Source: Minisyncoccota bacterium (GTDB lineage Bacteria > Patescibacteriota > Minisyncoccia > UBA6257 > GWB1-50-10). Taken from it: 64,000 bases of DNA. A model generated the notes under the pieces. It was not told the DNA's origin. It saw only the letters and a program-made list of their open reading frames with translations, and searched no databases. Positions 1 through 50,760 of this stretch are shown here, piece after piece; position 1 is the stretch's first letter, and the number at the start of each line of letters is the position of its first letter. The DNA lies in the NCBI GenBank assembly GCA_041917695.1, contig JAYRXE010000037.1:66155-130154 (forward strand), read 5' to 3'. The position numbers were made by a program, and so were the translations under genes.

Positions 1-243
1 GCGCCACTGATTTTGTCGGCGGCTTGATAGGGAAGCGAGTTTCAACGATCTCCCATTAGTTTTGCGATCCCCGGTTTTCCGGGGATTTTTTTGTGGACCC
101 GGGGGAAGTTCACACGTTGAAAACCCACGGTTTTCAATACATTCCTTCACGGGAGACCACTCGTGTTCTCCCGACCCCACTCCGGTTCAATTTCCAGCTC
201 GCAGAAAAAGAAAAAATGCCCTAAGGCATCTTTTCTTTTTCAG

Positions 244-314
244 TGGACCCGGGGGGAATTGAACCCCCACCTCCGCAATGCGAATGCGGCATTTTACCGT
301 TGAACTACGGGCCC
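244..314 (-). tRNA. tRNA-Ala, anticodon CGC
   Basis: Reverse complement folds as a cloverleaf: acceptor GGGCCCG/CGGGTCC with a G3:U70 pair (alanine identity element), anticodon stem CCGCA/TGCGG, loop TTCGCAT, T-arm GGGGG-TTCAATT-CCCCC. The D-stem is weak (3 bp). No CCA is encoded. Confidence 0.65.
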
Positions 315-493
315 TAAAATATTCACTATTCGGGCGAACAGCAAGGCTGTTTTAGCCCATATGAATTTGCTTATTGAGAGTACCGTGAGGATGCTGAGTT
401 TTCAAGATAGAGAGGGAGTATATTGACTTTTCTTAGTAAAAATGGTATACTTATACCAGTAAATTAAATAACCTCAGAAAGGAGCGGAAGCTC

Positions 494-1075
494 GTGAAGG
501 AACTCTATCTCGCTTTGGCGAACCTGTTTCTCTTGGCTACCGTCTCTCTTTATTTCTGGAATCTGATAAAGAAGGGCGTTACGCCAAATCCCACCACGTT
601 TTTCGTGCGGTCAGTGGTAGGAGTGATGAATTTCGTTTCGTATCTTGCTGTAGTCAATAAAGACTACCTCAAGATAAGCTCGCTTGTTCTCTCCACCCTC
701 GGAATGCTCCTCATTTTCTTCTACGCACTCGCAAAGAAGAGAACGACCGAGCTCCGCAGGGCAGACGTGATCTGCGGAAGCGCCGCACTCGTCATCGGGG
801 TGATATGGAAAACCACCGAAAACGATCTGCTGGCGAATCTTTTGCTCCAGGCCGTGATGCTTTTTGCTTTCTATCCCGCCATCGAAGGCGTATGGAAGGG
901 GATTGCAAAAGAGAAGGCATTGCCATGGGTCTGCGCCGTCATTTCCTACGGATTCATGACCTGCGCGGTGGCAGGGAACGGATGGGAGGCCTTGGTGCAT
1001 CCCGTCATCAGCGGAATTTTCGGCAATGGCATCCTCGCCGTTGCGATTATCATAAAAAATAAAAAAGGGGCTTAA
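494..1075 (+). CDS. multi-pass integral membrane protein, function unknown
   Basis: GTG start 6 nt after an AAAGGAGCGG ribosome-binding site. 193 aa, almost entirely hydrophobic helices. A hairpin terminator follows. Confidence 0.5.
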   Translation: MKELYLALANLFLLATVSLYFWNLIKKGVTPNPTTFFVRSVVGVMNFVSYLAVVNKDYLKISSLVLSTLGMLLIFFYALAKKRTTELRRADVICGSAALVIGVIWKTTENDLLANLLLQAVMLFAFYPAIEGVWKGIAKEKALPWVCAVISYGFMTCAVAGNGWEALVHPVISGIFGNGILAVAIIIKNKKGA

Positions 1076-1095
1076 TGCCCCTTTTGTTTTTACCC
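1062..1095. terminator. bidirectional rho-independent terminator hairpin (AAGGGGC-TTAAT-GCCCCTT flanked by A and T runs)
   Basis: Perfect GC stem between convergent genes 494..1075(+) and 1090..1824(-). Confidence 0.5.
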
Positions 1096-1824
1096 GAGTT
1101 TTTTCGCCATGACGATTTTCACATTGGTCCAGGTCCGGTCAGTGTTAAAGCTGGCGCAATCCATTTTTGGCTTTGGGAATATAGAACAATAATGTTCCCA
1201 CCACTGACTCCTGAAGTGAGGATTAAATTGGCGGTCATTTTTCTGGTCGTTCTCATAACATACCAAACTGAAAAAGCATACAGCAGCACCCCGTTCGTGG
1301 TCTCCGAAAGCTTCCTTTTGAATTTCGGATTGGCTATCACCTTCAAGCATAAAGATGTATTCAAGGCGCTTTTCAAATTCTACGCCGGCAAAATGCTCAA
1401 TAAGCCAATCAGCCTGTGAAGGCGTGATGCACTGTTCAAAAAGATTTGTCCTGTCTCCGAGGCTATTTCTGAAAGCTGAACTGTCTACCTCTCCTTCGAT
1501 GGTATATACATACACGGTCATTTCATCGGTGGCAGGATACTCTTTGAACAACATTGTTGCTTTATGGTTTCCCGTCGCTCTTTTTGCAAAGCGGGAAGTC
1601 TCCCGTTCTGCAGCCGGAAAGGCGGGGATTTTTATTTCTACACCTGTCCATACAAGCTTTTTTGGTACACCAGCTTTCAATTTCCTCAAAAGTGATTCGA
1701 GACCCGTTTCGAATGTGCGTAGCAGATTTCTATCGCTTGCGATGAATTTTTCATCTTCAGAAGTAAGAATTTCCTTCTGATTTTCCTGGAAGATAGTGCT
1801 GAGATTTTTTGGGCTCTGTCCCAT
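1090..1824 (-). CDS. hypothetical protein (244 aa), soluble
   Basis: Long ORF with ribosome-binding site AAAGGAG. Preceded on the coding strand by the conserved CAGnAATTCAATAACTTAA motif shared with genes 3838..4689 and 6192..7046. A terminator overlaps its stop codon. Confidence 0.45.
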   Translation of the reverse strand: MGQSPKNLSTIFQENQKEILTSEDEKFIASDRNLLRTFETGLESLLRKLKAGVPKKLVWTGVEIKIPAFPAAERETSRFAKRATGNHKATMLFKEYPATDEMTVYVYTIEGEVDSSAFRNSLGDRTNLFEQCITPSQADWLIEHFAGVEFEKRLEYIFMLEGDSQSEIQKEAFGDHERGAAVCFFSLVCYENDQKNDRQFNPHFRSQWWEHYCSIFPKPKMDCASFNTDRTWTNVKIVMAKKLG

Positions 1825-1884
1825 ATAAACTCCTTTTTAAGTTATTGAATTTCTGAGCTAGTTCTACATTCAAATACGGCCTGC

Positions 1885-1915
1885 GTCAAATAAAAAGCCC
1901 CGCTAAGCGGGGACT
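1885..1915 (-). terminator. rho-independent terminator overlapping the stop codon of gene 1903..2664
   Basis: On the minus strand: GCCCCGC-TTA-GCGGGGC followed by TTTTT. The stop codon lies in the hairpin loop. Confidence 0.45.
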
Positions 1916-2664
1916 TTGTCTTTACGTTTCTTTTTTCTTTTCTTTTCAATTTCATCGCGGATCTCTTCAAGGTATCGCATGTTTTCTGCTATTACCGCTT
2001 CTTTCCGTTTTTCCACTTCCTCCGGAGTGAGCTCATTATAATCAAAGCATTCGCACTCATCCTCGTCGCAGAAATCACAGGGAGCGAATTCCCATTCGAT
2101 TACTTTTCCATTTGGCAGAGCTGAGACGTGCCCGTCGGAATAATGGTGGAGAAGCATACACGGACAAGCTTCCTGCCGAGGGGTAAGGAAAATATCGAAG
2201 GTGGGAAGATTCAAATCGCATCTCTCAATATCCCGATATGTTCCGATGTAGGTAAAGCCATGGGACGCATCAACCTTTAGAGGAATATACAATCCTTTTG
2301 CGAGGTCGAAGATCATAAACGCCAGGCCGAGACCGCGGTTGTATTCCGTCTTCTTGCTGGTACCTGCTTTTCTTAGGGCTTCGAGGTCGTAGCTTTTTGT
2401 GCCGAAGTCGCGTATCTCGAAGTAGAGATGGCGGTTCATAGCATCGTAGAGTATGTATGCCTCACCCTTGCCGTCCGCGTGGTCGTAAATGTTTTTCAGT
2501 ATTTCCTTCATCAGGGAATACATCTGTTGCCAGTTTGCCCGCGGAAATCTCCGTTTCAGAAATGGGATGAACGTATCGCGGAAGGGGCGAAAAAAAGCGT
2601 CCCGTTCCATGTCGTTTCCCGTGAATTGAAAATGAAGCTCATGGATGAACCCTTTTTTAGCCAC
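1903..2664 (-). CDS. hypothetical protein (253 aa) with a Cys-rich acidic C-terminal segment and a Lys-rich tail
   Basis: Uninterrupted ORF with C-terminal CPCMLLHH...CDFCDEDECECFDYNE followed by KKRKKKRKDK. I recognise no family. Confidence 0.4.
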   Translation of the reverse strand: MAKKGFIHELHFQFTGNDMERDAFFRPFRDTFIPFLKRRFPRANWQQMYSLMKEILKNIYDHADGKGEAYILYDAMNRHLYFEIRDFGTKSYDLEALRKAGTSKKTEYNRGLGLAFMIFDLAKGLYIPLKVDASHGFTYIGTYRDIERCDLNLPTFDIFLTPRQEACPCMLLHHYSDGHVSALPNGKVIEWEFAPCDFCDEDECECFDYNELTPEEVEKRKEAVIAENMRYLEEIRDEIEKKRKKKRKDKVPA

Positions 2665-2730
2665 TGTGGCCTCCGTATTAAATTAGTTAATTATTACTAG
2701 CCTCTTTCTACCCCTTTCGGGGGAGGGGTG

Positions 2731-3051
2731 TCAATTTTTCTTTTTCTTCAGGAGGTTTTTTTCCGTATAGATGGGGATGCCGTCTTTGGGGAGCGCGAAG
2801 TTGATGGTGTAGCCTTCTTTCTTCAGTTCTTCCATCCGGGCGATTTGTTCTTCCGAAAAGTTGATGGGAAAGGTGAATTGCCCGCCGGGATGGCGCTTGA
2901 ATTCCTCGACCATTTTTTTCGGCGGCTTGGGCGCGAGCTTGCCACTGATGCGCTTCAGGAGGGAAGCGGGCTTCTGGCCCCGTTCGTCCGGTGTTTCGGG
3001 CGCAAGAAGGATGGTGATCTCTTTATGTATTTCCGGTTTCTTTTTTACCAT
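2731..3051 (-). CDS. small basic hypothetical protein (106 aa)
   Basis: ORF only; Lys-rich ends. Confidence 0.3.
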   Translation of the reverse strand: MVKKKPEIHKEITILLAPETPDERGQKPASLLKRISGKLAPKPPKKMVEEFKRHPGGQFTFPINFSEEQIARMEELKKEGYTINFALPKDGIPIYTEKNLLKKKKN

Positions 3052-3146
3052 GTTCCACTATTTTAATTTGAACCCCCGTTTCGGGGAAGATGCTTTATCC
3101 ACAGGACGCTTTTGACAAGTTTGACAAGCGTTTTAAAATTGAAGCT

Positions 3147-3803
3147 ATGATGCACCCTATCCAAGAGAAGCTCCTTGAGCTCGCCGAGAAAAAGAATCTC
3201 GGCACGATGACGCTCCGCGAGATCGGCAGCTACATCAACGAATCCGCTCCGCAGAAGGTGAAGCACCACCTGGGCCAGCTCGAAAAGAAAGGCCTCATCC
3301 GCGTCGACCGCGTGAAGGGGATGATCGAAAAGACCTCCCCCGGACTTTCGCATGGATTCGTCCTTGCGGCGAAGCTTTTCACGGTGCCCATCGTCGGCAG
3401 CGCGAACTGCGGTCCCGCGCAAATCCTCGCCGAGGCGAATATCGCCGGGTACCTCCGCGTTTCGAGCACCTTTGTGGGGCGCAAGAAGGCGCAAGACCTT
3501 TTCGCCTTGAAAGCGTCCGGCCCCTCGATGAACCGCACGAACGTCGGCGGGAAGACCATCGACGACGGGGACTACGTGATCATAGACCGGAACGATTGCT
3601 CGCCCCGGAACGGCGACGTGGTGCTTTCCATCATCGACGGCATGGCGAACATCAAGAAATTCTACCGCGACGAGCGGAACCAGCAGATCGTCCTCGTTTC
3701 CGAATCCACGCAGAACTTCCCGCCCATCTGCATCCACTATTCCGACAGCTTCTCGGTAAACGGAAAGGTGGTGGGGGTCGTGAAGAAGCCGAAGATCAAA
3801 TAA
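3147..3803 (+). CDS. lexA: LexA-like transcriptional repressor (N-terminal wHTH plus C-terminal S24 peptidase domain)
   Basis: N-terminal MMHPIQEKLLELAEKKNLGTMTLREIGSYI...LGQLEKKGLI (winged-helix). C-terminal KASGPSM with the catalytic Ser in an S24-type G-x-S-M context, and a downstream Lys in NIKKFYRD. ATG at 3147 chosen inside the longer ORF. Confidence 0.7.
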   Translation: MMHPIQEKLLELAEKKNLGTMTLREIGSYINESAPQKVKHHLGQLEKKGLIRVDRVKGMIEKTSPGLSHGFVLAAKLFTVPIVGSANCGPAQILAEANIAGYLRVSSTFVGRKKAQDLFALKASGPSMNRTNVGGKTIDDGDYVIIDRNDCSPRNGDVVLSIIDGMANIKKFYRDERNQQIVLVSESTQNFPPICIHYSDSFSVNGKVVGVVKKPKIK

Positions 3804-3804
3804 A

Positions 3805-3840
3805 TAAAAAATCGCCCCAGTGGGGCGATTCGGCTTTTTA
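3805..3840. terminator. bidirectional terminator hairpin (ATCGCCCC-AGT-GGGGCGAT) between lexA and gene 3838..4689
   Basis: GC-rich stem flanked by A-run and T-run. Confidence 0.5.
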
Positions 3841-4689
3841 AGCCATCATACCAACTTTTCCGCGTATCGCTTCAATTTCTGCGGCCGCTTTTTTCACGAA
3901 ATAGCCCGAAATATTTTCGTACGTGGATTCAAATCCCATCTCTTTCAAGAGGTCCCGATTGTCTTTCCATGTGAGGAGAAGCTTTTCCACTTTCTCTTCT
4001 ATCGGCATGCTCACCGAAGTGCGCGCGGCAGTGATTTCGTAGGTAAGCTGGGGGAATTTTTCCCCGAACCGCTTATCGAGAAAGGCTATCGCTTCCCACA
4101 GCGTCTTTGCCGGCTCCCGGAAGTTTTGGGAAAGCCCTGTGGAGGAAATGTTTCCCAATCTGATTCCGAACGCAAGAAGTTCCACTACAGCATAGCCGTC
4201 AGGCTTACGCTTCACAGAAACCACGATTTTCTTTATTTTCTTTTCCATCCTTTTCAGTATTTCTCCTGCGAGAAGTTCAGGAAAAAGTTCTTTGTTTTTC
4301 CTGAGTATTTTCATAAATTCCGGTATTTTGTTTTTCCACGCAATTTTCTTGAGCGGAACATAGATAACGGAAAAAAGGAGGAGCCACAGCACTACTCCGC
4401 CACACATGCCCCCCAAAAAAATAAGGAATAGCGTGCCGGGATCGAGAAGGCTGTCGCCGAACCAGCGGTAGCACAAGAGAGCGCTTCCAAGCGCAGAAAG
4501 AGGAAGAACAGTAAAAAAGATCATCCAGAAAGCCCATGTATGGCAATCGGCTCCGTCTAAATATGATTTTCCCACGGGGAGTTGCGATGCCGCCAAGGGT
4601 AGGTCGTCAAAGTCCATTTTTCTCAAGAAGCCCGAAAGGAACTTCTTGGCTTTTTTGTTTGCGCCCATTTGAGAAATTGTAGGTACCAT
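3838..4689 (-). CDS. membrane protein (283 aa; N-terminal cytoplasmic segment, two TM helices, C-terminal soluble domain); paralog of gene 6192..7046
   Basis: Shares with gene 6192..7046 its length, its TM topology, a W-K-N-K-I-P-E-F versus W-K-K-N-I-P-A-V-A-E-F segment after TM2, and the conserved upstream 19-nt motif. Confidence 0.5.
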   Translation of the reverse strand: MVPTISQMGANKKAKKFLSGFLRKMDFDDLPLAASQLPVGKSYLDGADCHTWAFWMIFFTVLPLSALGSALLCYRWFGDSLLDPGTLFLIFLGGMCGGVVLWLLLFSVIYVPLKKIAWKNKIPEFMKILRKNKELFPELLAGEILKRMEKKIKKIVVSVKRKPDGYAVVELLAFGIRLGNISSTGLSQNFREPAKTLWEAIAFLDKRFGEKFPQLTYEITAARTSVSMPIEEKVEKLLLTWKDNRDLLKEMGFESTYENISGYFVKKAAAEIEAIRGKVGMMA

Positions 4690-4751
4690 TTATCCACCTC
4701 GTTTTAAGTTATTGAATTGCTGGGGTCTTTGTATAACTTCCTTGACCATGT

Positions 4752-4783
4752 GTCAATAAAATAAAAACCGCCTTTCGGCGGTT
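4752..4783 (-). terminator. rho-independent terminator downstream of the helicase gene
   Basis: On the minus strand: AACCGCC-GAAA-GGCGGTT then T-run, directly after the TAA stop. Confidence 0.5.
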
Positions 4784-6130
4784 TTATTTCTTCTCAGAAC
4801 GCATAAGGAAATCGTCTTCGAGCGCCTGGGGCAGGGCGGGGTTGCCCTCGAGAACCAGCTTCTTCGTTTCGCGCGAGCATTCCCTCAATATGGCGTCGAA
4901 TCTCGTGATCTCGGGGCTTACGGTGAGCGCCGTTTCGTTTACGCCGAGCAGCTTTATACCTTCGAGCGAGCGCACGCGCGAAAGGGCGACGTACCCCATG
5001 CCGTGGCCAAAGGCCCTGCTCAGGTTTATTTCCGCCGCGTCGAGCGTCATGCCCTGGCTTTTGTGGATGGTGATAGCCCACGCGAGGCGCAAGGGGACTT
5101 GGCTGATGGAGGCGAGCACCCTTCCTTCCTCGTCTTCAACGTTCCAGCGTACGGCGGCCGCCGTGATGCATTCGCCGTCTTTCGTTTGGACGATGGGGTA
5201 GTGCGGCTCGTCGCTTTCGAACCCCACCACCGTGCCCAGCGTGCCGTTTATGTACCCTTCCGCGTGGTTGTTCCGCACGAACATGACGAGCGCGCCCTTC
5301 TTGAGTTCAAGCGTTTCGGGGGCAAGGCACGCCAGCTTGAGGGAATCGATGAGCTCCGCATCGCCGTTTCCCGACATGCGGTAGAAATGCGGCTCTCCCG
5401 AAAGCTTCCGCAATTCCCGGTCGTTTATGGAGTCGACGTCGTTCTTATGGCTGAAGAGCTTGGTTGCCGCGGCAAGTCCCGCGATTTCGCGGTTGATGCG
5501 CGTTTCAAGCGTCCTCCGCGTTTCCTCGTCCACGCCGCTGTTTCTGATGGCGTTCAGCACGCCCAGGAATTCCTCGTCCTCCTGGCGCCACTGCTTTTCG
5601 AGGTAACAGACCCACAAATCCGCGCGCTCCCAAGCTTCCGCGTGGAAAGCGTATTCGGGAACGGGCTCGCCCGGCCTTCCCACGGGCGGGAGTTGGAAGA
5701 AGTCACCGCACACGACGAGCTGGAGATTGCCAAAGGGCTCCGGCTTTCCGCGCACGAATCGGCAGACGCGGTCGATGAGCGAAAAAAGCTCCGCATCGAG
5801 CATCGAGATCTCGTCGATGACGAGCACGCGTGCGTCGTTGATGCGCTCGCGAGTGATGGTGTTGTACGCGAGCTTGTCCAGATCCTTTTGGGTGAGCGAT
5901 CTCCGCAGGGCGATGCCGGACCAGGAGTGGATGGTGCGCCCGTCCATGTGCGTCGCGGCGATGCCGGTGGAGGCCGTGATGGCGACGGGCACTTTGTGCT
6001 CCTTCAGGTAGGCGATATAGCTGTTCAGTACGTGTGTCTTTCCCGTTCCCGCGGCGCCGGTGAGAAAGACGTTCCGTCCCGTCCGTAAAATTTTCAGGGC
6101 TTCTTTTTGAGTCATGGATGCAGGTATCAC
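4784..6130 (-). CDS. PIF1/RecD-like ATP-dependent DNA helicase (superfamily 1)
   Basis: Walker A LTGAAGTGKTHVL, Walker B-like VLVIDEISM, and C-terminal helicase motifs with a QSQGMTLD-type motif V (ITIHKSQGMTLD). Size is typical for bacterial Pif1. The start may instead be the ATG at 6115. Confidence 0.75.
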   Translation of the reverse strand: MIPASMTQKEALKILRTGRNVFLTGAAGTGKTHVLNSYIAYLKEHKVPVAITASTGIAATHMDGRTIHSWSGIALRRSLTQKDLDKLAYNTITRERINDARVLVIDEISMLDAELFSLIDRVCRFVRGKPEPFGNLQLVVCGDFFQLPPVGRPGEPVPEYAFHAEAWERADLWVCYLEKQWRQEDEEFLGVLNAIRNSGVDEETRRTLETRINREIAGLAAATKLFSHKNDVDSINDRELRKLSGEPHFYRMSGNGDAELIDSLKLACLAPETLELKKGALVMFVRNNHAEGYINGTLGTVVGFESDEPHYPIVQTKDGECITAAAVRWNVEDEEGRVLASISQVPLRLAWAITIHKSQGMTLDAAEINLSRAFGHGMGYVALSRVRSLEGIKLLGVNETALTVSPEITRFDAILRECSRETKKLVLEGNPALPQALEDDFLMRSEKK

Positions 6131-6159
6131 TCTATGCTTGATGCGAGCCGAAAACCAGG

Positions 6160-6191
6160 GCGGATAAAAATAAAAACCGCCTTGCGGCGGT
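6160..6191 (-). terminator. rho-independent terminator after gene 6192..7046
   Basis: On the minus strand: AAACCGCCGC-AAGG-CGGTTTTT directly after the TAA stop. Confidence 0.5.
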
Positions 6192-7046
6192 TTAACGTAC
6201 GGGTTTGTATGTAACGGCCATAATGCCGTCCAAATCTTTTTCTATCATCCCGCGGTAGCGCAGGATGTGCTTTTCGGAAAGCTCGCGCCACGCTTCAAAC
6301 ACATGGGCGTAGCCGATTCTTTCAATGAATTCTATATGCGTCGACCAGGCTATCAAGAATTCCCTAAGCGTCGGCTCTAGGAAATCAAAAAGCTGAGGTC
6401 TCTTTTCCGCGAATGCTGCGGCGTCCCATTTGCCGAGAACCCCGCCGTATTCAGCGTAGATTTGTGCCATTTTTTCCCACACCGTGCGGGCAGAGCCCTG
6501 GTAAGAGTATTTGGCGAGCCAATCCTGCGGAATTTCAGCGAGTGACAAGCCGAATTCAAGGAAAAGAAGGATCTTATCGCCAGGCATGATTTCCCCGACT
6601 ACGTTTCTTGCAACTACCTGGATTTTCCCTACCCGCTCTTGGCAGGCTTCGGCATGCAGCTGCATGAAGTTGTGCGTAGGAGATTGGGCGAATTCCGCCA
6701 CAGCGGGAATGTTCTTTTTCCACATCGGGTGGATGAGCGAGATCTGCAGGAGCTTTGCAACGAACATGGTGCTTACCGCACTGGCGATGATGAGGAAAAG
6801 GCCGATGATGGGATCGCCTGCACCGAATTCTATAAGGTTGAAGGCGAAGAAGAAAAACAACATGCAGATAGGGAAGGCGAGGAACATCAAGTTTTTCTTC
6901 TGTCCCTGAAACCATTCGGAGCAGGAAATTTTCTCCCAGTCGAAGTTGAAGTCCTTTCCCGAAAGGTGGAAAAGCTTGGGAAGGGAAACGGTGTCGGTGC
7001 GGGCAAAGAAGGTTTTGGCAATTTCAGTGATTGCGGGTTTTTTCAT
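6192..7046 (-). CDS. membrane protein (284 aa), paralog of gene 3838..4689
   Basis: Same architecture and same upstream motif as gene 3838..4689. Confidence 0.5.
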   Translation of the reverse strand: MKKPAITEIAKTFFARTDTVSLPKLFHLSGKDFNFDWEKISCSEWFQGQKKNLMFLAFPICMLFFFFAFNLIEFGAGDPIIGLFLIIASAVSTMFVAKLLQISLIHPMWKKNIPAVAEFAQSPTHNFMQLHAEACQERVGKIQVVARNVVGEIMPGDKILLFLEFGLSLAEIPQDWLAKYSYQGSARTVWEKMAQIYAEYGGVLGKWDAAAFAEKRPQLFDFLEPTLREFLIAWSTHIEFIERIGYAHVFEAWRELSEKHILRYRGMIEKDLDGIMAVTYKPVR

Positions 7047-7231
7047 GGGTACCCCCTGTTAAGTTATTGAATTACTGGCCTCTTTTTACGAGAAAAGGGG
7101 AGTGATGTCAATTCGGTTGTTTTTCAGAGGGAAAGGGGAATAATGAAGGAAAGTTTGAATCCTTTTCGGTCTGCTAGATTGGTAACTTTGAACCCAAGCA
7201 AAATAAGGGTTCTAGGAGCTAAAATTAAGAT

Positions 7232-8371
7232 ATGGCAAACAAGAATCTTACAAACGCAAAGCGAGTAAAGAATGACGAATTTTATACTCAATACAGCGAT
7301 ATTCAAAAGGAGATTGATGCCTATTTGGAATACAATCCAAAAGTATTTCGAGGCAAGGTGGTGTATTGCAATTGCGACGACCCGTTCGAGAGCAATTTTT
7401 TTCGTTATTTTGTTCTCAATTTCAATAAACTTGGATTAAAGCGTCTCATCACGACGAGCTACAAACCATCGCCTGTTGCAAACACACAACTTGGGCTATT
7501 CGGCGATGATAAAACACTTGCGAAAGCAAAAGGCCGTCCAAAAGTGACTGCTAATAAATTTATTATCAATGAAGTAAAAGACATAGACGGCGATGGCGAA
7601 TTCAACCTGAAGGACGTCGCCAAGCAGTTAAAGGCAAACAAAAATAATGAATGGACACCACTCGAAGGAGACGGTGATTTTCGTAGTGACGAATCCATTG
7701 AACTGCTCAAACAATCTGACATCGTGGTAACAAATCCGCCATTTAGTCTGTTTCGCGAGTACATCGAACAACTTATTGAACACGATAAAAAGTTTTTGAT
7801 CATTGGCAACATGAACGCGATAAAATATACAAACGTATTTCCTCTATTGAAGAAGAATAGGATCTGGTTAGGTAACAACCACAAAGTTAATGGCGGAGCA
7901 ATGTTTTTTGAAATACCGGAAAAAATTGCCAATCTGGAACAGATTCGAGAAGTAAAAACAAGTGAGAGGGGCAAGAAAATTTATATCACTAGAGTACAAG
8001 GTGTTCGTTGGTTTACCAACCTTGACCATGGACGACGCCATCAACCAATACCCCTCATGACTGAGGCGGAGGTAATTAAGTTCGTCACAAAGGAACCTTT
8101 TAAGAAGTATGACAATTACGATGCAATAGAAGTTTCGTTAGTTAAAAATATTCCGAGTGACTATAAAGGATTAATGGGTGTTCCGATTAGTTTTTTGGAT
8201 AAGTATTCTCCAGAACAATTTGAAATAATTGATCTATTGAATAGGTATACTTTACTTGATTCGCAAAATACGAATGAGAGTGTTAGGGAGAGACATTCAC
8301 ACACCTGTAATATCAACGGCGTAGCAGTCTTCTCGAGGATTGCCATAAAAAACAGAAATACAAAGAAGTAG
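7232..8371 (+). CDS. N6-adenine DNA methyltransferase (motif IV NPPF)
   Basis: [10 protein letters not shown] is the catalytic N/D-PP-F/Y motif of amino-methyltransferases. N-terminal DEFYTQ is reminiscent of EcoRI-methylase-like families; this is recollection, not verified. First gene of the AT-rich island, and its stop is 1 nt before the next start. Confidence 0.7.
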
Positions 8372-8372
8372 T

Positions 8373-9542
8373 ATGAAAACGACCTTAAAAACAAATTTAA
8401 CCGTTAAAGAAGTCTGCGATGGTTTCGTTTATAACGAGTTTGAAGGCAAGGGTTTGTTTGGCTTGTCAGGTAAACTGACCATTCAGCCGGAGTATCAGCG
8501 AAATTATATTTATGCCTCTGATGGCGGCAAAAGAGAAATAGCAGTCATTGAATCAGTTCTCAAGGGATATCCAATAGGATTGATCTATTTCAATAAAGTC
8601 TCTGCTGACGGCTTAGAAGTTTTAGACGGCCAACAGCGCATCACCAGTCTGGGACGATTCATAACCGACAAATTTGCCATTAAAGATGAAAATGGCATGG
8701 AGCAATATTTTGGCGGCATGGCGAAAGACAAGCAGGCGAAAATCTTGGAAACGAGATTTCTTATTTACGAATGTGAAGGAACAGAGAGCCAAATAAAAGA
8801 ATGGTTCAAGACTATTAATATTGCTGGTGTTCCCCTTAATAATCAGGAATTGCTCAACGCAGTATATTCCGGTCCATTTGTAACCAAAGCCAAAGAAGAA
8901 TTCAGTAACAGCCAAAACGCCAACATTCAAAAATGGAGTGCGTATGTCTCTGGTAGCGCCAACCGCCAAGAATTTTTGGAATGTGCTCTTGATTGGGTGA
9001 GCAAAGGCAATATTGGCGACTACATGAGTAAGCATCGAAAAGACAAAAACATTGATGAGTTAAAAAGATATTTCAACGCGGTCATCGATTGGGTATCTAG
9101 CGTATTTACTGATGTTGAAAAGGAAATGCGCGGGCTTGAATGGGGACGCCTCTACGAGGAATATCACAAGAAATCATATAACCCAACCAAGGTATCTGCC
9201 GAAGTGCGCAAGCTCTACGGTGATCCATATATCAAAAATCACAAAGGCATTTTTGAATACGTTCTCGGTGGTTCAACCGATACCAAGTTGTTAGAAGTGC
9301 GCGTCTTTGATGAGGCAACGAAGAAAGCGACATATGCAACGCAAACAGCGGCGGCGGAAAAGAAGCATATTTCAAACTGCCCGCTCTGCGCCATTGGACA
9401 CGACGCCAACAAAGAGAAGATTTGGAAACTGGACGAAATGGATGCCGACCATGTGGCTGCGTGGAGCAAGGGCGGCAAAACCTCCACTAAGAATTGCCAG
9501 ATGCTCTGCAAGACGCATAACAGGGCGAAGGGCAACCGCTAA
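8373..9542 (+). CDS. DUF262 (ParB-like, DGQQR motif) plus C-terminal HNH nuclease; GmrSD-like
   Basis: [10 protein letters not shown] and [13 protein letters not shown] are the hallmark DUF262 motifs. The C-terminus CPLC...[30 protein letters not shown] is a canonical HNH (His-Me finger) motif. Confidence 0.75.
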
Positions 9543-9548
9543 AGCGAT

Positions 9549-10562
9549 ATGAAAATACTCAACCCAAAGGAAATAAAAGAAATAATCCAAAGCGGACATT
9601 TGAACCTGTTTATCGGCTCTGGGTGTTCCTTAAATTACCTCTCAACTCTGAAAGACATAGAAGACTGGATGAATGACGAGGCGACTAAAGAACAGGCGCA
9701 AAAGGACTACTACGCACTCATCAAAAAATCTAAAGCAATTTTGAGTGGCTATTTGGAAACGGACGATACTCAAAAAAGCGAGTTGGCAAAAACGAAAAAT
9801 ATCTACGATAAGTTTTTGCGTTTTTGGGCGGAGGCCATATCAAAGCGCTCCCTGCACATCGTGAACAAGCAGGTAAATATCTTTACGACCAACTTTGACC
9901 AGTTTATTGAGGATGCTTGCGAATGTTTGAACATCCCGTACAACGATGGATTTACTGGACAGATAAAGCCGGTGTTTAGTGTTGCCAACTTCAACAAAAT
10001 ACAGAAATACAAAAGTTTGCAGTTTGATAACACCTCGGACATTCCGCTTTTCAATATCATCAAGTTGCACGGCTCGGTTTCTTGGGCTGTAGAGGACGAC
10101 AAAATCGTCTACTCTAACGGTTCGCACATAGCGGACGATTTGGACGGTAAAAATTGGGCGGACTTTAGCGCGGGATATGAAAAGATTGCCGTCATAAATC
10201 CTAATGCGGAAAAACACTTTGAGACCGTGTTAGACACCAACTATGCCTCAATGTTGAGGAAGTTCACTTTGGAGTTGGAGAAAGAAAACAGTGTCTTATT
10301 GGTTTTCGGTTTTTCTCTGGAAGATAAGCATATTCGCAACCTCCTCTACGGAGTAATGAAATCAAACCCCACGCTCATCGTTATCTATTTCTCCTACTCA
10401 AAATACGACGAGACGCAGGATAAATTGGAAGAAGGCAAAAACTCAAACTTGTATGTGGTCTCGCCCGAAGACAAATTCTCCTTTGAAAAGGGCACGGAGT
10501 ATCTCTACTCTGTCTTTGCAAACGGAAAGAAAGATGATACCGCGCATGAAAACGAGCAATGA
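9549..10562 (+). CDS. SIR2-family (SIR2_2-like) protein; predicted NADase effector of a SIR2-HerA defence pair
   Basis: NLFIGSGCSLNYL (GAGxS-like), IFTTNFDQFIED (TTNYD-like), IIKLHGSVSW and LLVFGFSLED match the prokaryotic defence SIR2 signature blocks. The gene overlaps the start of the HerA-like gene. Confidence 0.7.
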   Translation: MKILNPKEIKEIIQSGHLNLFIGSGCSLNYLSTLKDIEDWMNDEATKEQAQKDYYALIKKSKAILSGYLETDDTQKSELAKTKNIYDKFLRFWAEAISKRSLHIVNKQVNIFTTNFDQFIEDACECLNIPYNDGFTGQIKPVFSVANFNKIQKYKSLQFDNTSDIPLFNIIKLHGSVSWAVEDDKIVYSNGSHIADDLDGKNWADFSAGYEKIAVINPNAEKHFETVLDTNYASMLRKFTLELEKENSVLLVFGFSLEDKHIRNLLYGVMKSNPTLIVIYFSYSKYDETQDKLEEGKNSNLYVVSPEDKFSFEKGTEYLYSVFANGKKDDTAHENEQ

Positions 10563-12459
10563 TTTTCAGCTTCAAGAAAGTTTGGTGGAGAACTCGGTAT
10601 TCACTATCGGGAGCGTTTCTAGTGTCAAAGGAAAAGACATCGTTGTAAAGGTAAATAAAGACAAAAACCTCCCGCATCTCTTTTTCAAAGGCAGGACAAT
10701 CAAGAATGTGTCGGTTGGTTTGTCTAATTATGTAAAAATTCTCAAGGGATTTACGGAGATAATCTGCAAAGTTGAAGGAGAATACATTGACGAAGATAAG
10801 CGTCAAAAAGATAAAAAGTACGCGAGCGAAAATCAAAAAATAGAGCGTTATCTCAATGTCTCGGTTTTCGGTTTCTACGACCACGACCACAAATTCCAGC
10901 ACGGCATAAAAGAAATGCCCCTTATCGGGAGCGAGTGTCGGCTTCTCTCGCGTGAGGAGTTTGAGACCTTGCACCAGTTGTCGGACAAGGATGATATTTC
11001 AATACCGCTCGGCACTCTCATAGACGAGGAAACCCAGCAAATCAAAATCTCTGCTGGAAAATTGTTTGCCGGACACGTGGGTATTTTCGGCAATACCGGC
11101 TCGGGAAAATCAAACACGCTCGCCACGCTCTACACGGAGTTGTTCAAACTTGGAGACCAGCGGACAAACTTCAAAACAAAATCAAAGTTTATATTCATAG
11201 ATTTCAATGGCGAGTATTCAAAAGATGGCGATGATGGTATTCTCTCTAAAAACAAGAAGGTTTATAGATTGAGAACACGGGATAATAGCGGTTCAAAGTA
11301 TCCGATATTGAAAACGGAACTTGAAAAGTTGGAACTCCTGTCTATTTTGCTTGATGCTACCGAAAAGACGCAACAGCCGTTTTTGCATAGGGCTATAGAC
11401 CGAAATTGGTTTGATACAGATAATGAAAACTACCAGAAGGAAATACAGAACATCAATCAAAAACTGAAAGATATTTTGGTGATGAAAAACAAGGAGTTCA
11501 ATGTTCCTTTTCTAAAAAAGTATGTGAAGGATTTTGAACAGTTAGGATTCAAAATCGTTGCTGACGACAAGAATATTGACGACTTGAAGTACCACGGCAA
11601 TGACAACTGCACTTTTTACTATCACAACGGCACTACGAATGTTTATGCCGATTCCCACGAAAGCGATTTTATCGGCGAGAGCGGGTATTTCAATGTTTCT
11701 ATTGGCGAGGACGGATTAAATGACCTGGAAAAGGTTCAGTTCAAAATATTAGACCAATATTACTTTGAGATTTTGAACGGATACGCAAATCAGGAGCATA
11801 TTAGCCCCCTCATGGGGCGACTCAAAAAGCGGTTTGATATGCTTGCCAAAGTTTTTGAGATACGAGATACAAATGTGGCCGATACACAAGCCACACAGCA
11901 TATTGAAGTTATTGACTTGAAAAATGTAAATCTTGAAATCAAAAAGGTTATCCCGCTTTTGGTCTGTAAAACCGGCTATGACGAACAAAAGGAGAAACGA
12001 AATATGGACAAAAATAACTCGCTCCACATCATTATAGATGAGGCACACAATATCCTTTCGGAAAACTCAAACAGAGAATCTGAATCATGGAAAGATTATC
12101 GTTTGGAAACCTTTGAGGAAATAATCAAAGAAGGTAGAAAGTTTGGAGTTTTCCTGACCATCGCCAGCCAAAGACCGTCGGACATTTCCCCCACGATAAT
12201 CTCCCAGTTGCATAACTATTTCATCCACAAACTGATGAATGACAATGATCTCCGCTCCATAAGCAAGGCCGTGAGTTATCTTGATAAACTCTCGTTTGAT
12301 TCCATTTCAAACCTGTCCACGGGCTGTTGCTTTATTGCGGGGCAAATGACCCAGTTTCCGCTTTCAGTGAAGGTTACGCTTCTGGACGCAACTATCCGGC
12401 CTCAAAGTGAGACCATTAATTTGAATAAGTTGTGGGCGGAAGCTGGGGCTAGCAACTAG
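10534..12459 (+). CDS. HerA-like ATPase (DUF87/FtsK-HerA superfamily), partner of SIR2
   Basis: Walker A GIFGNTGSGKSNT, then IFIDFNGEY (DPHGEY-like), Walker B LHIIIDEAHNI, and TIASQRPSDI. Start set at the ATG at 10534 (alternative ATG at 10546); both overlap the SIR2 3' end. Confidence 0.75.
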   Translation: MIPRMKTSNDFQLQESLVENSVFTIGSVSSVKGKDIVVKVNKDKNLPHLFFKGRTIKNVSVGLSNYVKILKGFTEIICKVEGEYIDEDKRQKDKKYASENQKIERYLNVSVFGFYDHDHKFQHGIKEMPLIGSECRLLSREEFETLHQLSDKDDISIPLGTLIDEETQQIKISAGKLFAGHVGIFGNTGSGKSNTLATLYTELFKLGDQRTNFKTKSKFIFIDFNGEYSKDGDDGILSKNKKVYRLRTRDNSGSKYPILKTELEKLELLSILLDATEKTQQPFLHRAIDRNWFDTDNENYQKEIQNINQKLKDILVMKNKEFNVPFLKKYVKDFEQLGFKIVADDKNIDDLKYHGNDNCTFYYHNGTTNVYADSHESDFIGESGYFNVSIGEDGLNDLEKVQFKILDQYYFEILNGYANQEHISPLMGRLKKRFDMLAKVFEIRDTNVADTQATQHIEVIDLKNVNLEIKKVIPLLVCKTGYDEQKEKRNMDKNNSLHIIIDEAHNILSENSNRESESWKDYRLETFEEIIKEGRKFGVFLTIASQRPSDISPTIISQLHNYFIHKLMNDNDLRSISKAVSYLDKLSFDSISNLSTGCCFIAGQMTQFPLSVKVTLLDATIRPQSETINLNKLWAEAGASN

Positions 12460-12674
12460 GGAGTCGCCCGCGTTATCCGAACTTACACAACACATAGATA
12501 AATTCTGCGAATTTTACGAAAAGTCTAAATCGAATAATCTACCACATTCTTAGTGCTCTTTATTGGTTTAGGCTGCGGTATCTCAAACCATTCTGAAGGA
12601 GTTTTATATACAGCCTGTAATTATAAAGAAATAAATTAACTTGATTTTCAGATCGCTCGTGATCTAATCAGATC

Positions 12675-13121
12675 ATGAGCTTGAATAAGCAATCTGGCGA
12701 TTTGGGAGAAGGGGAAGTGGTACAAAAAGTACCCTGTCCCAACTGTGGCAAGAAGCTTATGACACTTCCGAAAAATTATCCCTTGTATGATGTGCAGTGC
12801 GTTGGTTGTTTATTCCGCGCGCAAGTAAAAACTAATAATTGTAAGCCAAAAGCTGAAATTTTCGGAGCAGGATGGGATATTATTTCAAAGGTTATGAAGT
12901 CTGGGTATATTACCCCTCCGTTAATCGCCAACTTTAAATGGAGAGATAAAGAAGGCATTCGCCAAGAAATTCGATTTTATCCCTTCATTCCCAAGATCAA
13001 TTTAAAAAAGAGGCAATTATCTGAAAAGGCGCGCCGGGCAAATTATAAAATGTTCAACTATACTGGAATTGATAAAATTCCATACTTTGTTTATTCAAAA
13101 AATAAATGGATTTCCCAATAA
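12675..13121 (+). CDS. zinc-ribbon protein (148 aa); possible minimal PD-(D/E)xK-like nuclease
   Basis: CPNCGKK...C.GC Cys4 ribbon. LYDVQCVGCLFRAQVK gives D-x11-Q-V-K, a weak PD-(D/E)xK-like spacing. AT-rich. Confidence 0.35.
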   Translation: MSLNKQSGDLGEGEVVQKVPCPNCGKKLMTLPKNYPLYDVQCVGCLFRAQVKTNNCKPKAEIFGAGWDIISKVMKSGYITPPLIANFKWRDKEGIRQEIRFYPFIPKINLKKRQLSEKARRANYKMFNYTGIDKIPYFVYSKNKWISQ

Positions 13122-13420
13122 GTGAATACAATTTTTTTCTTTTTACTATTCCCGGCGCTATTACCGTTTGGTCTTATCGTACTGCGACCAAATCAAACAA
13201 GTCGGGGGATTTTGAATATCTGGCCTTAAGTGTATTTTGGGGTATAGCAATTTTTGCTTTGAACATATTATTTATTCCTAAATCCACTGGGATTTTATTA
13301 CAAAATATGTATGCTGCCGCTTTGGTTCTTTCATTAGTTGCTGGGAGCCTCGCTTATATGATAGGAAAAATTATCATTGGATTACCTTTTAATAAGATTA
13401 GTAACGATGCAAAAGACTAG
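13106..13420 (+). CDS. small membrane protein (104 aa, 2-3 TM helices)
   Basis: Hydrophobic ORF overlapping the previous gene by 16 nt. AT-rich. Confidence 0.4.
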   Translation: MDFPISEYNFFLFTIPGAITVWSYRTATKSNKSGDFEYLALSVFWGIAIFALNILFIPKSTGILLQNMYAAALVLSLVAGSLAYMIGKIIIGLPFNKISNDAKD

Positions 13421-13874
13421 TGCGGGGATCATCCTTTTTAGAAAAAAAGAAAAAATAGAATTTTTGCTCGTCCATCCGGGCGGGCCTTTTTTCGCGAAAA
13501 AAGACGAGGGTGTCTGGAGTATCCCGAAGGGCGAAAATGACAATGGGGATGAGCTTCTTAGCGTTGCGAAGCGCGAATTCAAAGAAGAGACGGGATTCGA
13601 TGCGCCGGAGGGCGAATATATTCCGCTCGGAACCGTCACGCAGAAGAACGGGAAGGAAGTGCACGCCTGGGGCGTGGAAGGGGAGATCGACGCGGAGAAC
13701 ATCACGAGCAATACGATCATGATCGATTGGCCCCCGCGGTCGGGAAAACAGATGGAGATTCCCGAAGTAGATAAGGCCGGCTTTTTCGACCTAGAGGCCG
13801 CAAAAAACAAGGTAAATCCTGCCCAAATCCCGCTCTTGGAGAGACTCTTGACTTTTTTGGAGAATGAGGTATAA
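13407..13874 (+). CDS. NUDIX hydrolase
   Basis: Nudix box GENDNGDELLSVAKREFKEETGF (GX5EX7REUXEEXGU). Confidence 0.75.
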   Translation: MQKTSAGIILFRKKEKIEFLLVHPGGPFFAKKDEGVWSIPKGENDNGDELLSVAKREFKEETGFDAPEGEYIPLGTVTQKNGKEVHAWGVEGEIDAENITSNTIMIDWPPRSGKQMEIPEVDKAGFFDLEAAKNKVNPAQIPLLERLLTFLENEV

Positions 13875-44433: not shown

Positions 44434-45777
44434 ATGCCCGGCAAGGAAAAAGACAACCGCATACAGCTCATCAAATACGCTCCGCCTCCGGCGGATCTTC
44501 CGGTGTACGGGAAAAGCGACCCGCGGGAAACGTCATTTATCGGTCGCACCAATTATGTCGCGGCGCTGGAGACGAAGAATTTCATCTTCGGCGTGAAGCG
44601 CGTCGATCGCCGGCGGCATATCTACGCCATCGGGAAATCCGGCGTCGGCAAATCGAAACTGTTCGAGCTTTTGATGCGGCAGGATATCGCCTACGGGCAT
44701 GGGCTCTGTTTCATCGATCCCTACGGGGAAACCATCGATGACATCCTCCCCTTTATTCCGGAAAACCGCATTGAGGACGTCTGCCTTATCGACCCGACCG
44801 ATACGGCATCGCCCGTTTCCTTCAATCCCTTTGTGGGGGTAGAGGACGATGCGAAGCATCAGCTCGTGCAGGAACTTGCGGAGATTATGGAACAGCGCTT
44901 CGGAGCGAATTGGACGCCCCGTTTGGAACATGTGTTCCGTTTTGCCTGTAGCGCCCTCCTCGACTACCCCCGGGCTTCATTTATGGACCTTATACCGCTT
45001 CTTTCCGACGCGGGGCATCGGAAGGAAATAGCCTCACACGCCAAAGATCCGATAGTGCGCCGTTTTTGGCTTGAAGAGTTCGAAGGATGGGCGGAAAAAT
45101 TCGACGGGGAATCGATATTGCCCCTTATGAACAAATTCGGGCAGTTCTTTTCAAACCCGATGTTGCGCGGCATCCTCGGGCAGTTGGAAAATAAAATCGA
45201 TTTTGACGATCTTATCGCGGGAAAGCGCATCGTCCTTATCAATCTCGCGAAGGGGCGGATGGGAGAGGACAATGCGAATTTTCTCGGCGCACTTTTCCTC
45301 GCGAAACTCAAGGAAGCGGGCATGGCGCGGGTTTCCCAGAGTCGCGACGCGCGGCACGATTTTTACGTGTATCTCGACGAGTTCCAGGGGCTCGTTACCG
45401 ACACGTTTGAAAGCTTCCTTCCCGAAGCGCGGAAATACGGCTTGTGCCTCATGCTCGCGCACCAATACGTTTCCCAGCTTTCCCCGAAGGTGCATGCCGG
45501 CATTCTCGGCAGTGCGGGGACCATCGTGATCTTCCGCGTCGGCGGGGAGGACGCTTTGAAGCTGAAGCCTGAAATGGCGCCGGTCTTCGACGTGAAAGAT
45601 ATGATAAACCTCGGCACGGGACAGATGTATTTGAAGATGATGATTGACGGCGAGACGTACGATCCGTTTTCCGCCGAAACGCTCAAGGTGTTGCCGCCGA
45701 CGCATCCGTCGCACGCAGACCGCATTATCGCGTCTTCACGCGCAAAATACGCGCTCCACTCTGCCGCAAACGCGTAG
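44434..45777 (+). CDS. HerA/FtsK-superfamily (DUF87/VirB4-like) ATPase, copy 1
   Basis: FGVKRVDRRRHIYAIGKSGVGKS (Walker A), CFIDPYGE (DPHGE-like), Walker B YVYLDEFQ, MLAHQYVSQL. Confidence 0.6.
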   Translation: MPGKEKDNRIQLIKYAPPPADLPVYGKSDPRETSFIGRTNYVAALETKNFIFGVKRVDRRRHIYAIGKSGVGKSKLFELLMRQDIAYGHGLCFIDPYGETIDDILPFIPENRIEDVCLIDPTDTASPVSFNPFVGVEDDAKHQLVQELAEIMEQRFGANWTPRLEHVFRFACSALLDYPRASFMDLIPLLSDAGHRKEIASHAKDPIVRRFWLEEFEGWAEKFDGESILPLMNKFGQFFSNPMLRGILGQLENKIDFDDLIAGKRIVLINLAKGRMGEDNANFLGALFLAKLKEAGMARVSQSRDARHDFYVYLDEFQGLVTDTFESFLPEARKYGLCLMLAHQYVSQLSPKVHAGILGSAGTIVIFRVGGEDALKLKPEMAPVFDVKDMINLGTGQMYLKMMIDGETYDPFSAETLKVLPPTHPSHADRIIASSRAKYALHSAANA

Positions 45778-45821
45778 GTTTTTGCGGTGTTTCCCAAAGC
45801 AACTATAATAAAGACCATCCT

Positions 45822-49338: not shown

Positions 49339-50760
49339 ATGCCTCCCCATGCCGCGGTGTTTTACGGGACGGTCTTTTTCCTGTGCGGCATTCTTCTCAA
49401 GAGTTTTTTCTCCGGCAGCGTGATATTCATCGTCGGAGGGGCCTTTTCCCTTGTCCTTCTCATTTTTTGGCGGCTCCGAACGGTTCCGTTCCTTGCCGTT
49501 TTTATGCCGTTCTTTCTGATTCTCGGCGCGTTTTACTATTCGTTTTACGATTCGCTGACCCGTCCGCAGGCAGTTCCTTACGGGGAAGCGCGGGAATTCA
49601 CCGCGGAGGTGGTTTCGATGCGGGAACGCGCCACCTACCGCATAGCGACATTAAAGATTCTCAATGAAAAAAATATCACTGTTTCCGCCCTCCTTCCTTC
49701 GCTTCCGCCTGCGGGCTATGGCGACACGCTTCGGCTCAAAGGGGAGATCCTTCCGCCGGAAGACCGCGCTTCAGCGCGCTATTTGCTGAAGGACAATATA
49801 TTCGGCACGATGGCTTTCCCTGAAATTTACGAGGTTTCGCGGACAAGGGAATGGCGCCCGCTGCGCTTTCTCTATGCCGCATCCGATTATGTAATTGCGT
49901 CTTTTAAGCGCGTCATGCCCGCGGACGATGCCGCCCTTATGGCCGGCCTTACCATCGGAAGCACTGATGATTTTTCCGCCGGTTTCAAGGAGGCGATGCG
50001 CCGGAGCGGCACCACGCACCTGGTTGCTCTTTCGGGGTATAACGTAACGATTATCGCCTCAGTTCTTCTGGTTTTTCTCCGATTTTTCCTCTCGCGCCGT
50101 CAGGCGCTTTTTGCAGCTCTTTTCGCCGTGCTTGTTTTCGTGCTTATGACGGGAGCGTCTCCGTCGGTCGTCCGTGCGGGACTTGCGGCCGCGCTCCTCA
50201 TTTCATTGAAGATATCGGGGCGGCTGCGTGACCCGAAGTACGTCGTCGCATTCGTTGCGCTTTTGATGGCGCTGTGGAACCCCCGCGTGGTCGCCTTCGA
50301 TGTGGGGTTCCAGCTTTCATTCGCGGCCTTGCTGGGCATCTTATACATCCTTCCCGTTCTGCGCGCCGGATTGTGGGGAAGGGACCGGAACGCGCCTTTC
50401 CTTTTCGAGTCGTTTGGAGCGGCGCTCGCCGCCCAGCTGGCTGCCGTTCCGCTTCTCCTCTTTTATTTTGGGAACGTCTATGCGAGTTCGCTTATCGCGA
50501 ATGCCGCCATCGCCATATTCATTCCTCCCACGATGGCGATTGGTTTCTTGATAGCCTTTTTCTCGCTTCTCCTGCCCCCGCTTGCCCTTCTCGGCGGATT
50601 CGTGGCCGTTCCGTTCCTCCGCGCAGAAAGCGGGATTATCGACTTTTTTTCGGAGCATGCGTTCTTGCCCGTATCTTTTTCGGTTTCAGCGGTGTACATC
50701 GGATTGTACTATGGAATCATGGCAGTGCTTTATCGATATGCACGAAAACGGTTTTTTTGA
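49339..50760 (+). CDS. comEC: ComEC/Rec2 competence-domain part (frame 1)
   Basis: Competence-domain blocks GTTHLVALSGYNVTIIA and SPSVVRAGLAAALLIS, about 10 TM helices. Ends at a TGA that directly follows a T7 run. Confidence 0.7.
   Translation: MPPHAAVFYGTVFFLCGILLKSFFSGSVIFIVGGAFSLVLLIFWRLRTVPFLAVFMPFFLILGAFYYSFYDSLTRPQAVPYGEAREFTAEVVSMRERATYRIATLKILNEKNITVSALLPSLPPAGYGDTLRLKGEILPPEDRASARYLLKDNIFGTMAFPEIYEVSRTREWRPLRFLYAASDYVIASFKRVMPADDAALMAGLTIGSTDDFSAGFKEAMRRSGTTHLVALSGYNVTIIASVLLVFLRFFLSRRQALFAALFAVLVFVLMTGASPSVVRAGLAAALLISLKISGRLRDPKYVVAFVALLMALWNPRVVAFDVGFQLSFAALLGILYILPVLRAGLWGRDRNAPFLFESFGAALAAQLAAVPLLLFYFGNVYASSLIANAAIAIFIPPTMAIGFLIAFFSLLLPPLALLGGFVAVPFLRAESGIIDFFSEHAFLPVSFSVSAVYIGLYYGIMAVLYRYARKRFF

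Follow-up and report, generated by a model that had tools for sequence, protein, structure and literature searches.

The 64,000-nucleotide (nt) stretch of a Minisyncoccota genome analyzed here (contig JAYRXE010000037.1, positions 66,155 to 130,154; hereafter the window) carries at 7232–12459 a block of four genes in which a restriction-modification (R-M) pair, consisting of a DNA methyltransferase and a DUF262-HNH nuclease, is followed directly by a SIR2-HerA pair. Taken as a single locus, the block is a composite of two known modules and as such unremarkable. The new finding is an architecture: SIR2-HerA follows R-M operons at their 3′ end, the R-M heads are interchangeable, and a recombination joint lies inside the nuclease gene. 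On balance, we lean towards reading the locus as a mini defence island acquired horizontally, a layered composite of two known and self-sufficient modules that are probably co-transcribed and co-inherited. The features of the block are as follows (aa, amino acids):

7047–7231, + strand: intergenic region of 185 nt, the only sizeable non-coding gap before 12460 and the presumed promoter region of the block
7232–8371, + strand: EcoRI-family N6-adenine DNA methyltransferase, 379 aa, with TNPPF at aa 167–171 and the stop codon TAG at 8369–8371
8373–9542, + strand: putative Type II restriction endonuclease, 389 aa, with a DUF262 (GmrSD_N/ParB-like) and an HNH domain; ATG at 8373, stop codon TAA
9281–9542, + strand: HNH-coding 3′ segment of the nuclease gene, behind a breakpoint at about 9280, with ancestry shared with SIR2-HerA
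9549–10562, + strand: predicted SIR2-family NADase effector, 337 aa; ATG at 9549, stop codon TGA
10546–12459, + strand: HerA-type hexameric ATPase/translocase, 637 aa, overlapping the SIR2 gene by 17 nt

The original prediction had described four packed genes on one strand, and its boundaries for 7232–12459 were confirmed from the open reading frames (ORFs) and their junctions. The gaps between the genes are 1, 6, and −17 nt, a spacing that suggests translational coupling and a single operon. The start of HerA had been placed at either of two ATG codons; 10546 (MKTSNDF...), and not 10534, was supported both by aligning 30 homologues and by gene calls made independently.

The same gene order, methylase-nuclease-SIR2-HerA, was found in two further genomic contexts with unrelated flanks (L013-16 and L017), so that the co-occurrence of the four genes extends to homologous loci. 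A nuclease-SIR2 junction of 5–6 nt is common to all three. These two contexts hold the nearest relatives of the window's HerA. The first of the blocks, whose HerA (P0001) is 97% identical to that of the window, adjoins the S2/EF-Ts genes and is preceded by a helix-turn-helix (HTH) controller gene; the second (P0003, 92% HerA identity) has unrelated neighbor genes. The nucleotide homology of the three blocks extends from the methylase ATG (~7220) to the HerA stop codon. On a tree of SIR2 and HerA, the four-gene block is confined to these three contexts in one narrow subclade.

Comparison of the blocks revealed a switch of ancestry at ~9280, within the nuclease gene. The methylase gene and the first ~900 nt of the nuclease gene are 73–76% identical to L013 and 74–77% to L017, and their nearest relatives are the stand-alone R-M loci L019 and L032 (86–88%). 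The ~260 nt at the end of the nuclease gene, together with SIR2 and HerA, are 92–96% identical to L013 and 87–89% to L017, and these two are the nearest relatives, in that order. Inside the nuclease gene itself, the nucleotide identity to L013 is 92% over 9281–9542 and 73% over 8373–9280; for the closest stand-alone R-M loci, identity is 86–88% up to the breakpoint but about 76% in most of them (81% at best) over 9281–9542. At the protein level, the methylases of the blocks are 54–57% identical, and SIR2 and HerA 90–97%. Judged by these alignments, SIR2-HerA and the HNH-coding tail have been combined with different R-M heads and the R-M variant is interchangeable, which argues against a specific partnership of the methylase with SIR2-HerA. 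SIR2-HerA appears to have spread between the R-M variants of the block via recombination inside the nuclease gene.

Outside the HNH-linked subclade, homology between the SIR2-HerA cassettes ends no more than ~15 nt from the HerA stop codon and at the SIR2 start, and no shared recombination site was seen at these edges. An HNH domain upstream of SIR2 occurred beyond the block only in L018, where it is intact, and in L008. In the latter, a Spirochaetia genome, a decayed HNH-domain fragment (YRLEEMEVDHIGAWHEDGKTNAEDYLMLCKTGN) lies at 8829–8936, directly upstream of SIR2. As L008 branches deepest in the clade, the joint between HNH and SIR2 may be older than the subclade of the window.

The association with R-M genes proved to be broader than the four-gene block. 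We compared 19 distinct genomic contexts of the SIR2-HerA clade, the window included. In 11 of them the nearest gene upstream of the pair is co-directional and encodes an R-M component, at a gap of −4 to +91 nt, and the upstream partners belong to at least seven R-M kinds of Types I, II, IIG, and III. The contexts are arranged as follows:

Window, L013, L017: EcoRI-family methylase and DUF262-HNH nuclease upstream of SIR2
L018: divergent HNH nuclease (partner 37% identical) upstream of SIR2
L004: Type I-like methylase/specificity ORF upstream of SIR2
L007: Type III Mod and Res upstream of SIR2
L011: C5 methylase, HpaII nuclease, and Vsr upstream of SIR2
L100, L106: two D12 methylases and an AlwI-like nuclease upstream of SIR2
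L108: Type IIG enzyme behind an SNF2/PLD helicase, upstream of SIR2
L110: HTH gene, Type I methylase, and specificity subunit upstream of SIR2
L005, L099: restriction genes one gene further upstream
L008, L009: restriction-related genes only downstream (in L008 in addition to the decayed HNH relic upstream)
L006, L010, L103, L104: no restriction genes

The R-M family of the window is missing directly upstream of SIR2 in 15 of the 19 contexts, with L018 counted as having it. On the tree of SIR2 and HerA the R-M partners are interleaved, which indicates frequent partner changes. The stand-alone copies (L103, L104, L010, L009, and L006) have 160–755 nt of non-coding sequence upstream, and none of four distant plasmid-borne SIR2-HerA loci (about 40% identity) has an R-M partner. 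A binomial calculation for seven independent junction kinds among 15 contexts gave P = 3e-4 under a null of 0.1 and P = 0.018 under a null of 0.2. The joining of SIR2-HerA to R-M genes is not specific to the R-M pair of the window, and the lineage is habitually found at the 3′ end of R-M operons.

Two other kinds of genes were observed around the SIR2-HerA copies. Genes for PD-(D/E)XK nucleases (PDDEXK_1 or DUF2779) adjoin SIR2-HerA in five of the 19 contexts (L007 10102–10881; L099 8916–9665; L108 8931–10382; L004 5836–7329, minus strand; L110 929–2413, minus strand) and are absent from the window; in three of the five they lie directly 3′ of HerA on the same strand. Such a gene may be an accessory third gene of SIR2-HerA. 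In addition, LexA-like S24 peptidase genes were located near SIR2-HerA blocks in L001 (4718–5431), L017 (763–1416), and L099 (5308–5967). In L099 the peptidase gene stands between the R-M pair and SIR2, and genes of a type IV secretion system (conjugation) follow, which hints that some SIR2-HerA copies ride conjugative or integrative elements.

The families assigned to all four genes by the original prediction received strong Pfam and PADLOC profile support, and the motifs that it had listed were located, with the catalytic ones intact. The methyltransferase matched PF13651 EcoRI_methylase (1.3e-127) and PADLOC MTase_II (2.6e-110). The nuclease matched PF03235 GmrSD_N (3.2e-20), PF01844 HNH (1.2e-6), and, over its full length, PADLOC REase_II PDLC03418 (1.2e-83); DGQQR is at aa 85–89 and the HNH motif DH...N...HN at aa 359–383. 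A sequence search of the PDB with the nuclease found no relative. The nuclease family has more than 8000 homologues, mostly from lineages of the Candidate Phyla Radiation (CPR), among which the top 120 share 86% identity or more with it.

A metagenome scan yielded 571 stretches related to the R-M pair, of which the best 80 (L019–L098, 82–89% nuclease identity) were examined. In 76 of these loci the sequence reaches far enough upstream of the nuclease, and each of the 76 has an EcoRI-family methylase there; neither SIR2 nor HerA occurs in any of the 80. The 3′ neighbors are variable and often defence-like: AAA_15/AAA_21 ATPases, DUF4209, DUF2806, and Hypoth_Ymh, as well as DUF5677, DUF2726, an SF1 helicase, a recombinase, and HtrA. 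The pair was also found without SIR2-HerA on 9–10-kb plasmids of Moraxella, Pediococcus, and Apilactobacillus. From the full-length REase_II match and the constant pairing with a methylase, the two proteins are identified as a predicted Type II R-M pair, and the DUF262-HNH nuclease is most likely blocked by the mark of its methylase. An obligate four-gene system was rejected on the basis of these 80 relatives, the 15 contexts in which SIR2 is not directly preceded by this R-M family, and the narrow distribution of the block.

The nuclease had been compared in the original prediction with modification-dependent enzymes of the GmrSD type. It shares with the GmrSD, BrxU, and SspE Type IV nucleases an N-terminal GmrSD_N (DUF262) domain with DGQQR and a C-terminal nuclease of the His-Me finger type (family described in PMC12707154). 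However, a profile search detected no DUF1524 in it; the C-terminus is a PF01844 HNH domain, and the enzyme is always paired with a methylase where upstream sequence suffices. A GmrSD-type, modification-dependent activity is disfavored on these grounds, and that part of the original prediction is unlikely to hold.

With Type II systems that have a PF13651 methyltransferase, the pair shares the position of the methylase directly upstream of the nuclease, the MTase_II and REase_II matches, the presence on small plasmids, and wide transfer. It differs in that the nuclease is of the DUF262/ParB-like plus HNH kind and not a PD-(D/E)XK enzyme like EcoRI. A second difference concerns conservation: among L019–L098 the nuclease is far more conserved (82–89% at the aa level) than the methylase (45–89%), and Type II systems usually show the reverse. 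Many of these methylases differ at the C-terminus and align only to aa 1–335, and in several loci 1–3 kb are inserted between the methylase and nuclease genes.

Palindrome counts in the 57.6 kb of host sequence in the window showed no depletion of AATT, GAATTC, or CAATTG. The most under-represented 4-mer palindromes of the host part (1–7050 and 13431–64000) were GATC (170 observed vs. 263 expected) and GGCC (195 vs. 290), with z about −5.7. The depletion points to restriction pressure at those sites, now or in the past; no tie to the R-M pair of the island was seen.

SIR2 matched PF13289 SIR2_2 (3.5e-15) and PADLOC SIR2 (7.6e-48) and contains GSG at aa 23–25, TTNFD at 113–117, and KLHGS at 172–176. 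HerA matched PF01935 DUF87 (7.6e-18) and PADLOC HerA PDLC04097 (8.6e-175, over 4–614 of 618 positions) and contains Walker A (GNTGSGKS), Walker B (IIIDEAH), and SQRPS, the arginine finger. The PDB matches of both proteins (1e-13 to 3e-30) are components of known complexes: SIR2 matched the SIR2 chains of the SIR2-HerA complexes 8w9l, 8j4u, and 8yhx, with the catalytic region aligned in 8w9l and 8j4u, and HerA matched 8yho, 9c1m, 8j4u_M, and 8wiv. The pair has in common with the described SIR2-HerA systems (Gao_Her_SIR/Nezha; 8j4u, 8w9l/8wld, 8yhx) the two overlapping genes, the N/D/H catalytic motifs of SIR2, the Walker A, Walker B, and arginine finger motifs of HerA, and the full-length HerA and SIR2 models of PADLOC. 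It differs in its large sequence distance, below the NCBIfam equivalog cut-offs, and in its position 6 nt behind a restriction gene, within a clade recurrently appended to R-M operons. By sequence, it thus represents a distant clade with the known architecture, which PADLOC already models.

A search with HerA gave 3,435 homologues at E ≤ 1e-10. Relatives of the pair with 70–82% identity are present in Gammaproteobacteria, Bdellovibrionales, Spirochaetia, Flavobacteriales, Saccharibacteria, and other Patescibacteria. All of them are without the R-M pair of the window and have other R-M types upstream, or none. Scans of IMG/VR with HerA and with a HerA alignment found no viral contigs carrying this SIR2-HerA clade.

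The block forms the main part of a 6.4-kb island with a GC content of ~40% inside a Patescibacteria genome of ~54%. The drop in base composition at about 7.1 kb and the recovery at about 13.4 kb noted previously were reproduced: GC is 0.403 at 7051–13430 and 0.539 in the remaining window, and in 500-nt windows it falls below 0.45 from about 6.75–7.25 kb and is back up at about 13.3–13.8 kb. No convincing att-like direct or inverted repeats and no convincing integrase were found around the island. The assignment to a CPR host was upheld by SecA, whose best named relatives are from Jorgensenbacteria, Brennerbacteria, and Paceibacterota (61–66% identity). The island and its two genes downstream of the block are as follows:

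7051–13430: low-GC island with six same-strand genes, defined by the GC profile
12675–13121, + strand: small DpnI-family protein, 148 aa, with a CxxC...CxxC motif (PF06044, 4.2e-10)
13106–13420, + strand: hydrophobic protein, 104 aa, with no family match in profile searches; GC 0.34–0.38

The DpnI-family protein covers positions 24–152 of the 183 in the PF06044 profile (PADLOC mREase_II, 4.4e-5) and represents the methyl-directed enzyme by its catalytic-domain part only; its gene begins 215 nt 3′ of HerA. Together with the ORF of the hydrophobic protein, it is the part of the island with the lowest GC. Since the DpnI-family gene is absent from the four-gene blocks of L013 and L017, it was probably acquired separately and lies outside the conserved block.

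Several other genes of the window were recorded. About 1 kb before the island, a PIF1-family helicase is encoded on the other strand (4784–6130, minus strand). Two unrelated metagenome loci (L022 2–1162 and L065 9717–11000) also have PIF1-like genes (46–52% identity) near the R-M pair, within about 1–3 kb. At 44434–47627 there are two adjoining genes for TrwB/VirD4-like coupling-protein ATPases, one with a DUF87 (HerA-like) match, and a ComEC competence gene follows downstream at 49339–50760; this DNA-uptake or transfer machinery is unrelated to the finding.

In the interpretation that we favor, the two modules would act in layers. In the first, the methylase would protect host DNA and the nuclease would cut unmethylated incoming DNA. 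In the second, a HerA hexamer would assemble with SIR2, and infection would release the SIR2 NADase, so that nicotinamide adenine dinucleotide (NAD+) would be depleted and the growth of the infected cell would stop. Restriction would act first, and NAD+ depletion would follow when a phage escapes; this is the restriction first line with an NAD-depletion second line proposed in the original prediction, and we judged it the most sensible reading. In related systems, HerA and SIR2 form a large complex whose formation activates NADase and nuclease activities, and the NADase is restrained by ATP (PMC11472057, PMC11514289). All four genes would be transcribed from the R-M promoter, with read-through into SIR2-HerA, and would be inherited and transferred as one block. 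Gaps of 1, 6, and −17 nt leave little room for an internal promoter, and transcription from the R-M promoter is therefore the most probable arrangement. Scans for sigma-70 promoters and terminators gave counts at the level of shuffled sequence and were uninformative for this host. The linkage may serve shared expression, stabilization by the addictive R-M pair, and joint transfer.

Some points weigh against this interpretation or narrow it. A promoter inside the 3′ end of the nuclease gene, which travels together with SIR2-HerA, is possible. The activity of SIR2-HerA is extrapolated from relatives that are only distantly similar in sequence: the proteins score far below the NCBIfam equivalog cut-offs of the studied families (NF042942/NF042943/NF042944), with 83 vs. 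500 bits and 136 vs. 800 for SIR2 and HerA and a third score of 104 vs. 850. Once restriction-related genes 3′ of HerA are included in the count, the polarity (11 upstream vs. 4 downstream) is not significant (P = 0.12), and a part of the upstream pattern may be ordinary clustering in defence islands. Because the 19 contexts are a small sample, biased toward long contigs and partly non-independent, the placement of R-M genes upstream of this clade is a well-supported lead rather than a proven rule.

A tentative alternative is functional cross-talk between the modules, in which the nuclease cleaves invading DNA into linear fragments onto which HerA loads; its ATPase would be stimulated, the ATP block on SIR2 lifted, and NAD+ depletion thereby licensed. 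The R-M pair would then sense invaders for SIR2-HerA or amplify its response. Every R-M type that produces DNA ends could do so, which would account for the acceptance of any type. A study of 2026 on the E. coli type III Sir2-HerA provides a precedent: linear DNA with exposed ends activated the ATPase of the complex, supercoiled DNA did not, and exposed ends relieved the ATP inhibition and potentiated the trigger-dependent NADase (PMC13434337). The upstream partners in our sample share little beyond being R-M components, mostly from systems directed against unmodified DNA, and their tight gaps to SIR2 also agree with such a coupling. However, in the published system DNA ends alone were insufficient to activate the NADase and a phage protein trigger was also needed (PMC13434337), and that system is only distantly related to the SIR2-HerA of the window. 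Furthermore, clade members stand alone in at least four contexts, which counts against obligate dependence, and several of the partners consist, in the form found, of methylase/specificity genes alone (L004 and L110). A fuller version, in which the clade is a restriction-dependent amplifier that R-M operons of any type have repeatedly acquired at their 3′ ends because restriction-made DNA ends load HerA, consume ATP, and license the SIR2 NADase, is in our view unlikely. If true, it would tie abortive infection to innate DNA cutting in organisms with few other defences, such as CPR bacteria.

It is improbable that the modules were brought together by chance in a defence island and that their order and spacing are without significance for selection or regulation. 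Both modules are highly mobile, with 70–90% identity across phyla vs. 61–66% for SecA to its named relatives, the neighbors of the R-M pair are very variable, and the clustering of defence genes is known. Nevertheless, the same junction has been kept in three unrelated genomic contexts, the frequency of immediately upstream, co-directional R-M genes (11 of 19) was not matched by the distant relatives (0 of 4), and the gaps are far shorter than those of the stand-alone SIR2-HerA copies.

The disfavored proposal of a true four-component system, in which HerA or SIR2 reads the methylation mark or a methyl-dependent, GmrSD-like DUF262-HNH nuclease works with SIR2-HerA, is very improbable: it can draw on the GmrSD_N/DUF262 family of the N-terminal domain and on weak PADLOC matches to NsnA, PD-T4-2_A, and HEC-05/06, but the C-terminal domain is a classical HNH (PF01844) and not DUF1524, constant pairing with a methylase would be self-destructive for a methyl-dependent enzyme, none of the 80 R-M relatives has SIR2-HerA, and the methylase has been swapped within the block (54–57% identity) with SIR2-HerA remaining 90–97% identical. 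The suggestion that the methylase marks self DNA for HerA likewise found no support in this difference, and the idea of one integrated system did not survive the R-M pair standing alone in 80 of 80 relatives, the other partners or none of SIR2-HerA, and the mosaic block.

Abortive-infection genes within or next to R-M loci are known from PrrC or RloC in Type I loci and from Hma-embedded candidates. The layered composite that we favor resembles these in having an effector of the abortive-infection type in or next to a restriction operon, as a linked second line of defence. It differs in its cargo, a SIR2-HerA pair located 3′-terminally in the operon, and in R-M partners that are freely exchanged between Types I, II, IIG, and III; guard-type sensing of anti-restriction is not part of the case here. 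In the literature searched, no described link of this SIR2-HerA clade with R-M operons was found.

In conclusion, a SIR2-HerA lineage that is widespread in uncultivated bacteria stands repeatedly directly behind restriction operons of unrelated types. The pattern suggests an assembly rule for small defence islands, by which abortive-infection cargo is appended to R-M heads. The licensing of Sir2-HerA by DNA ends and the adjacency to R-M genes together offer a testable link between restriction and NAD+ depletion. For CPR bacteria, the locus adds an abortive-infection system to a sparse known defence repertoire.

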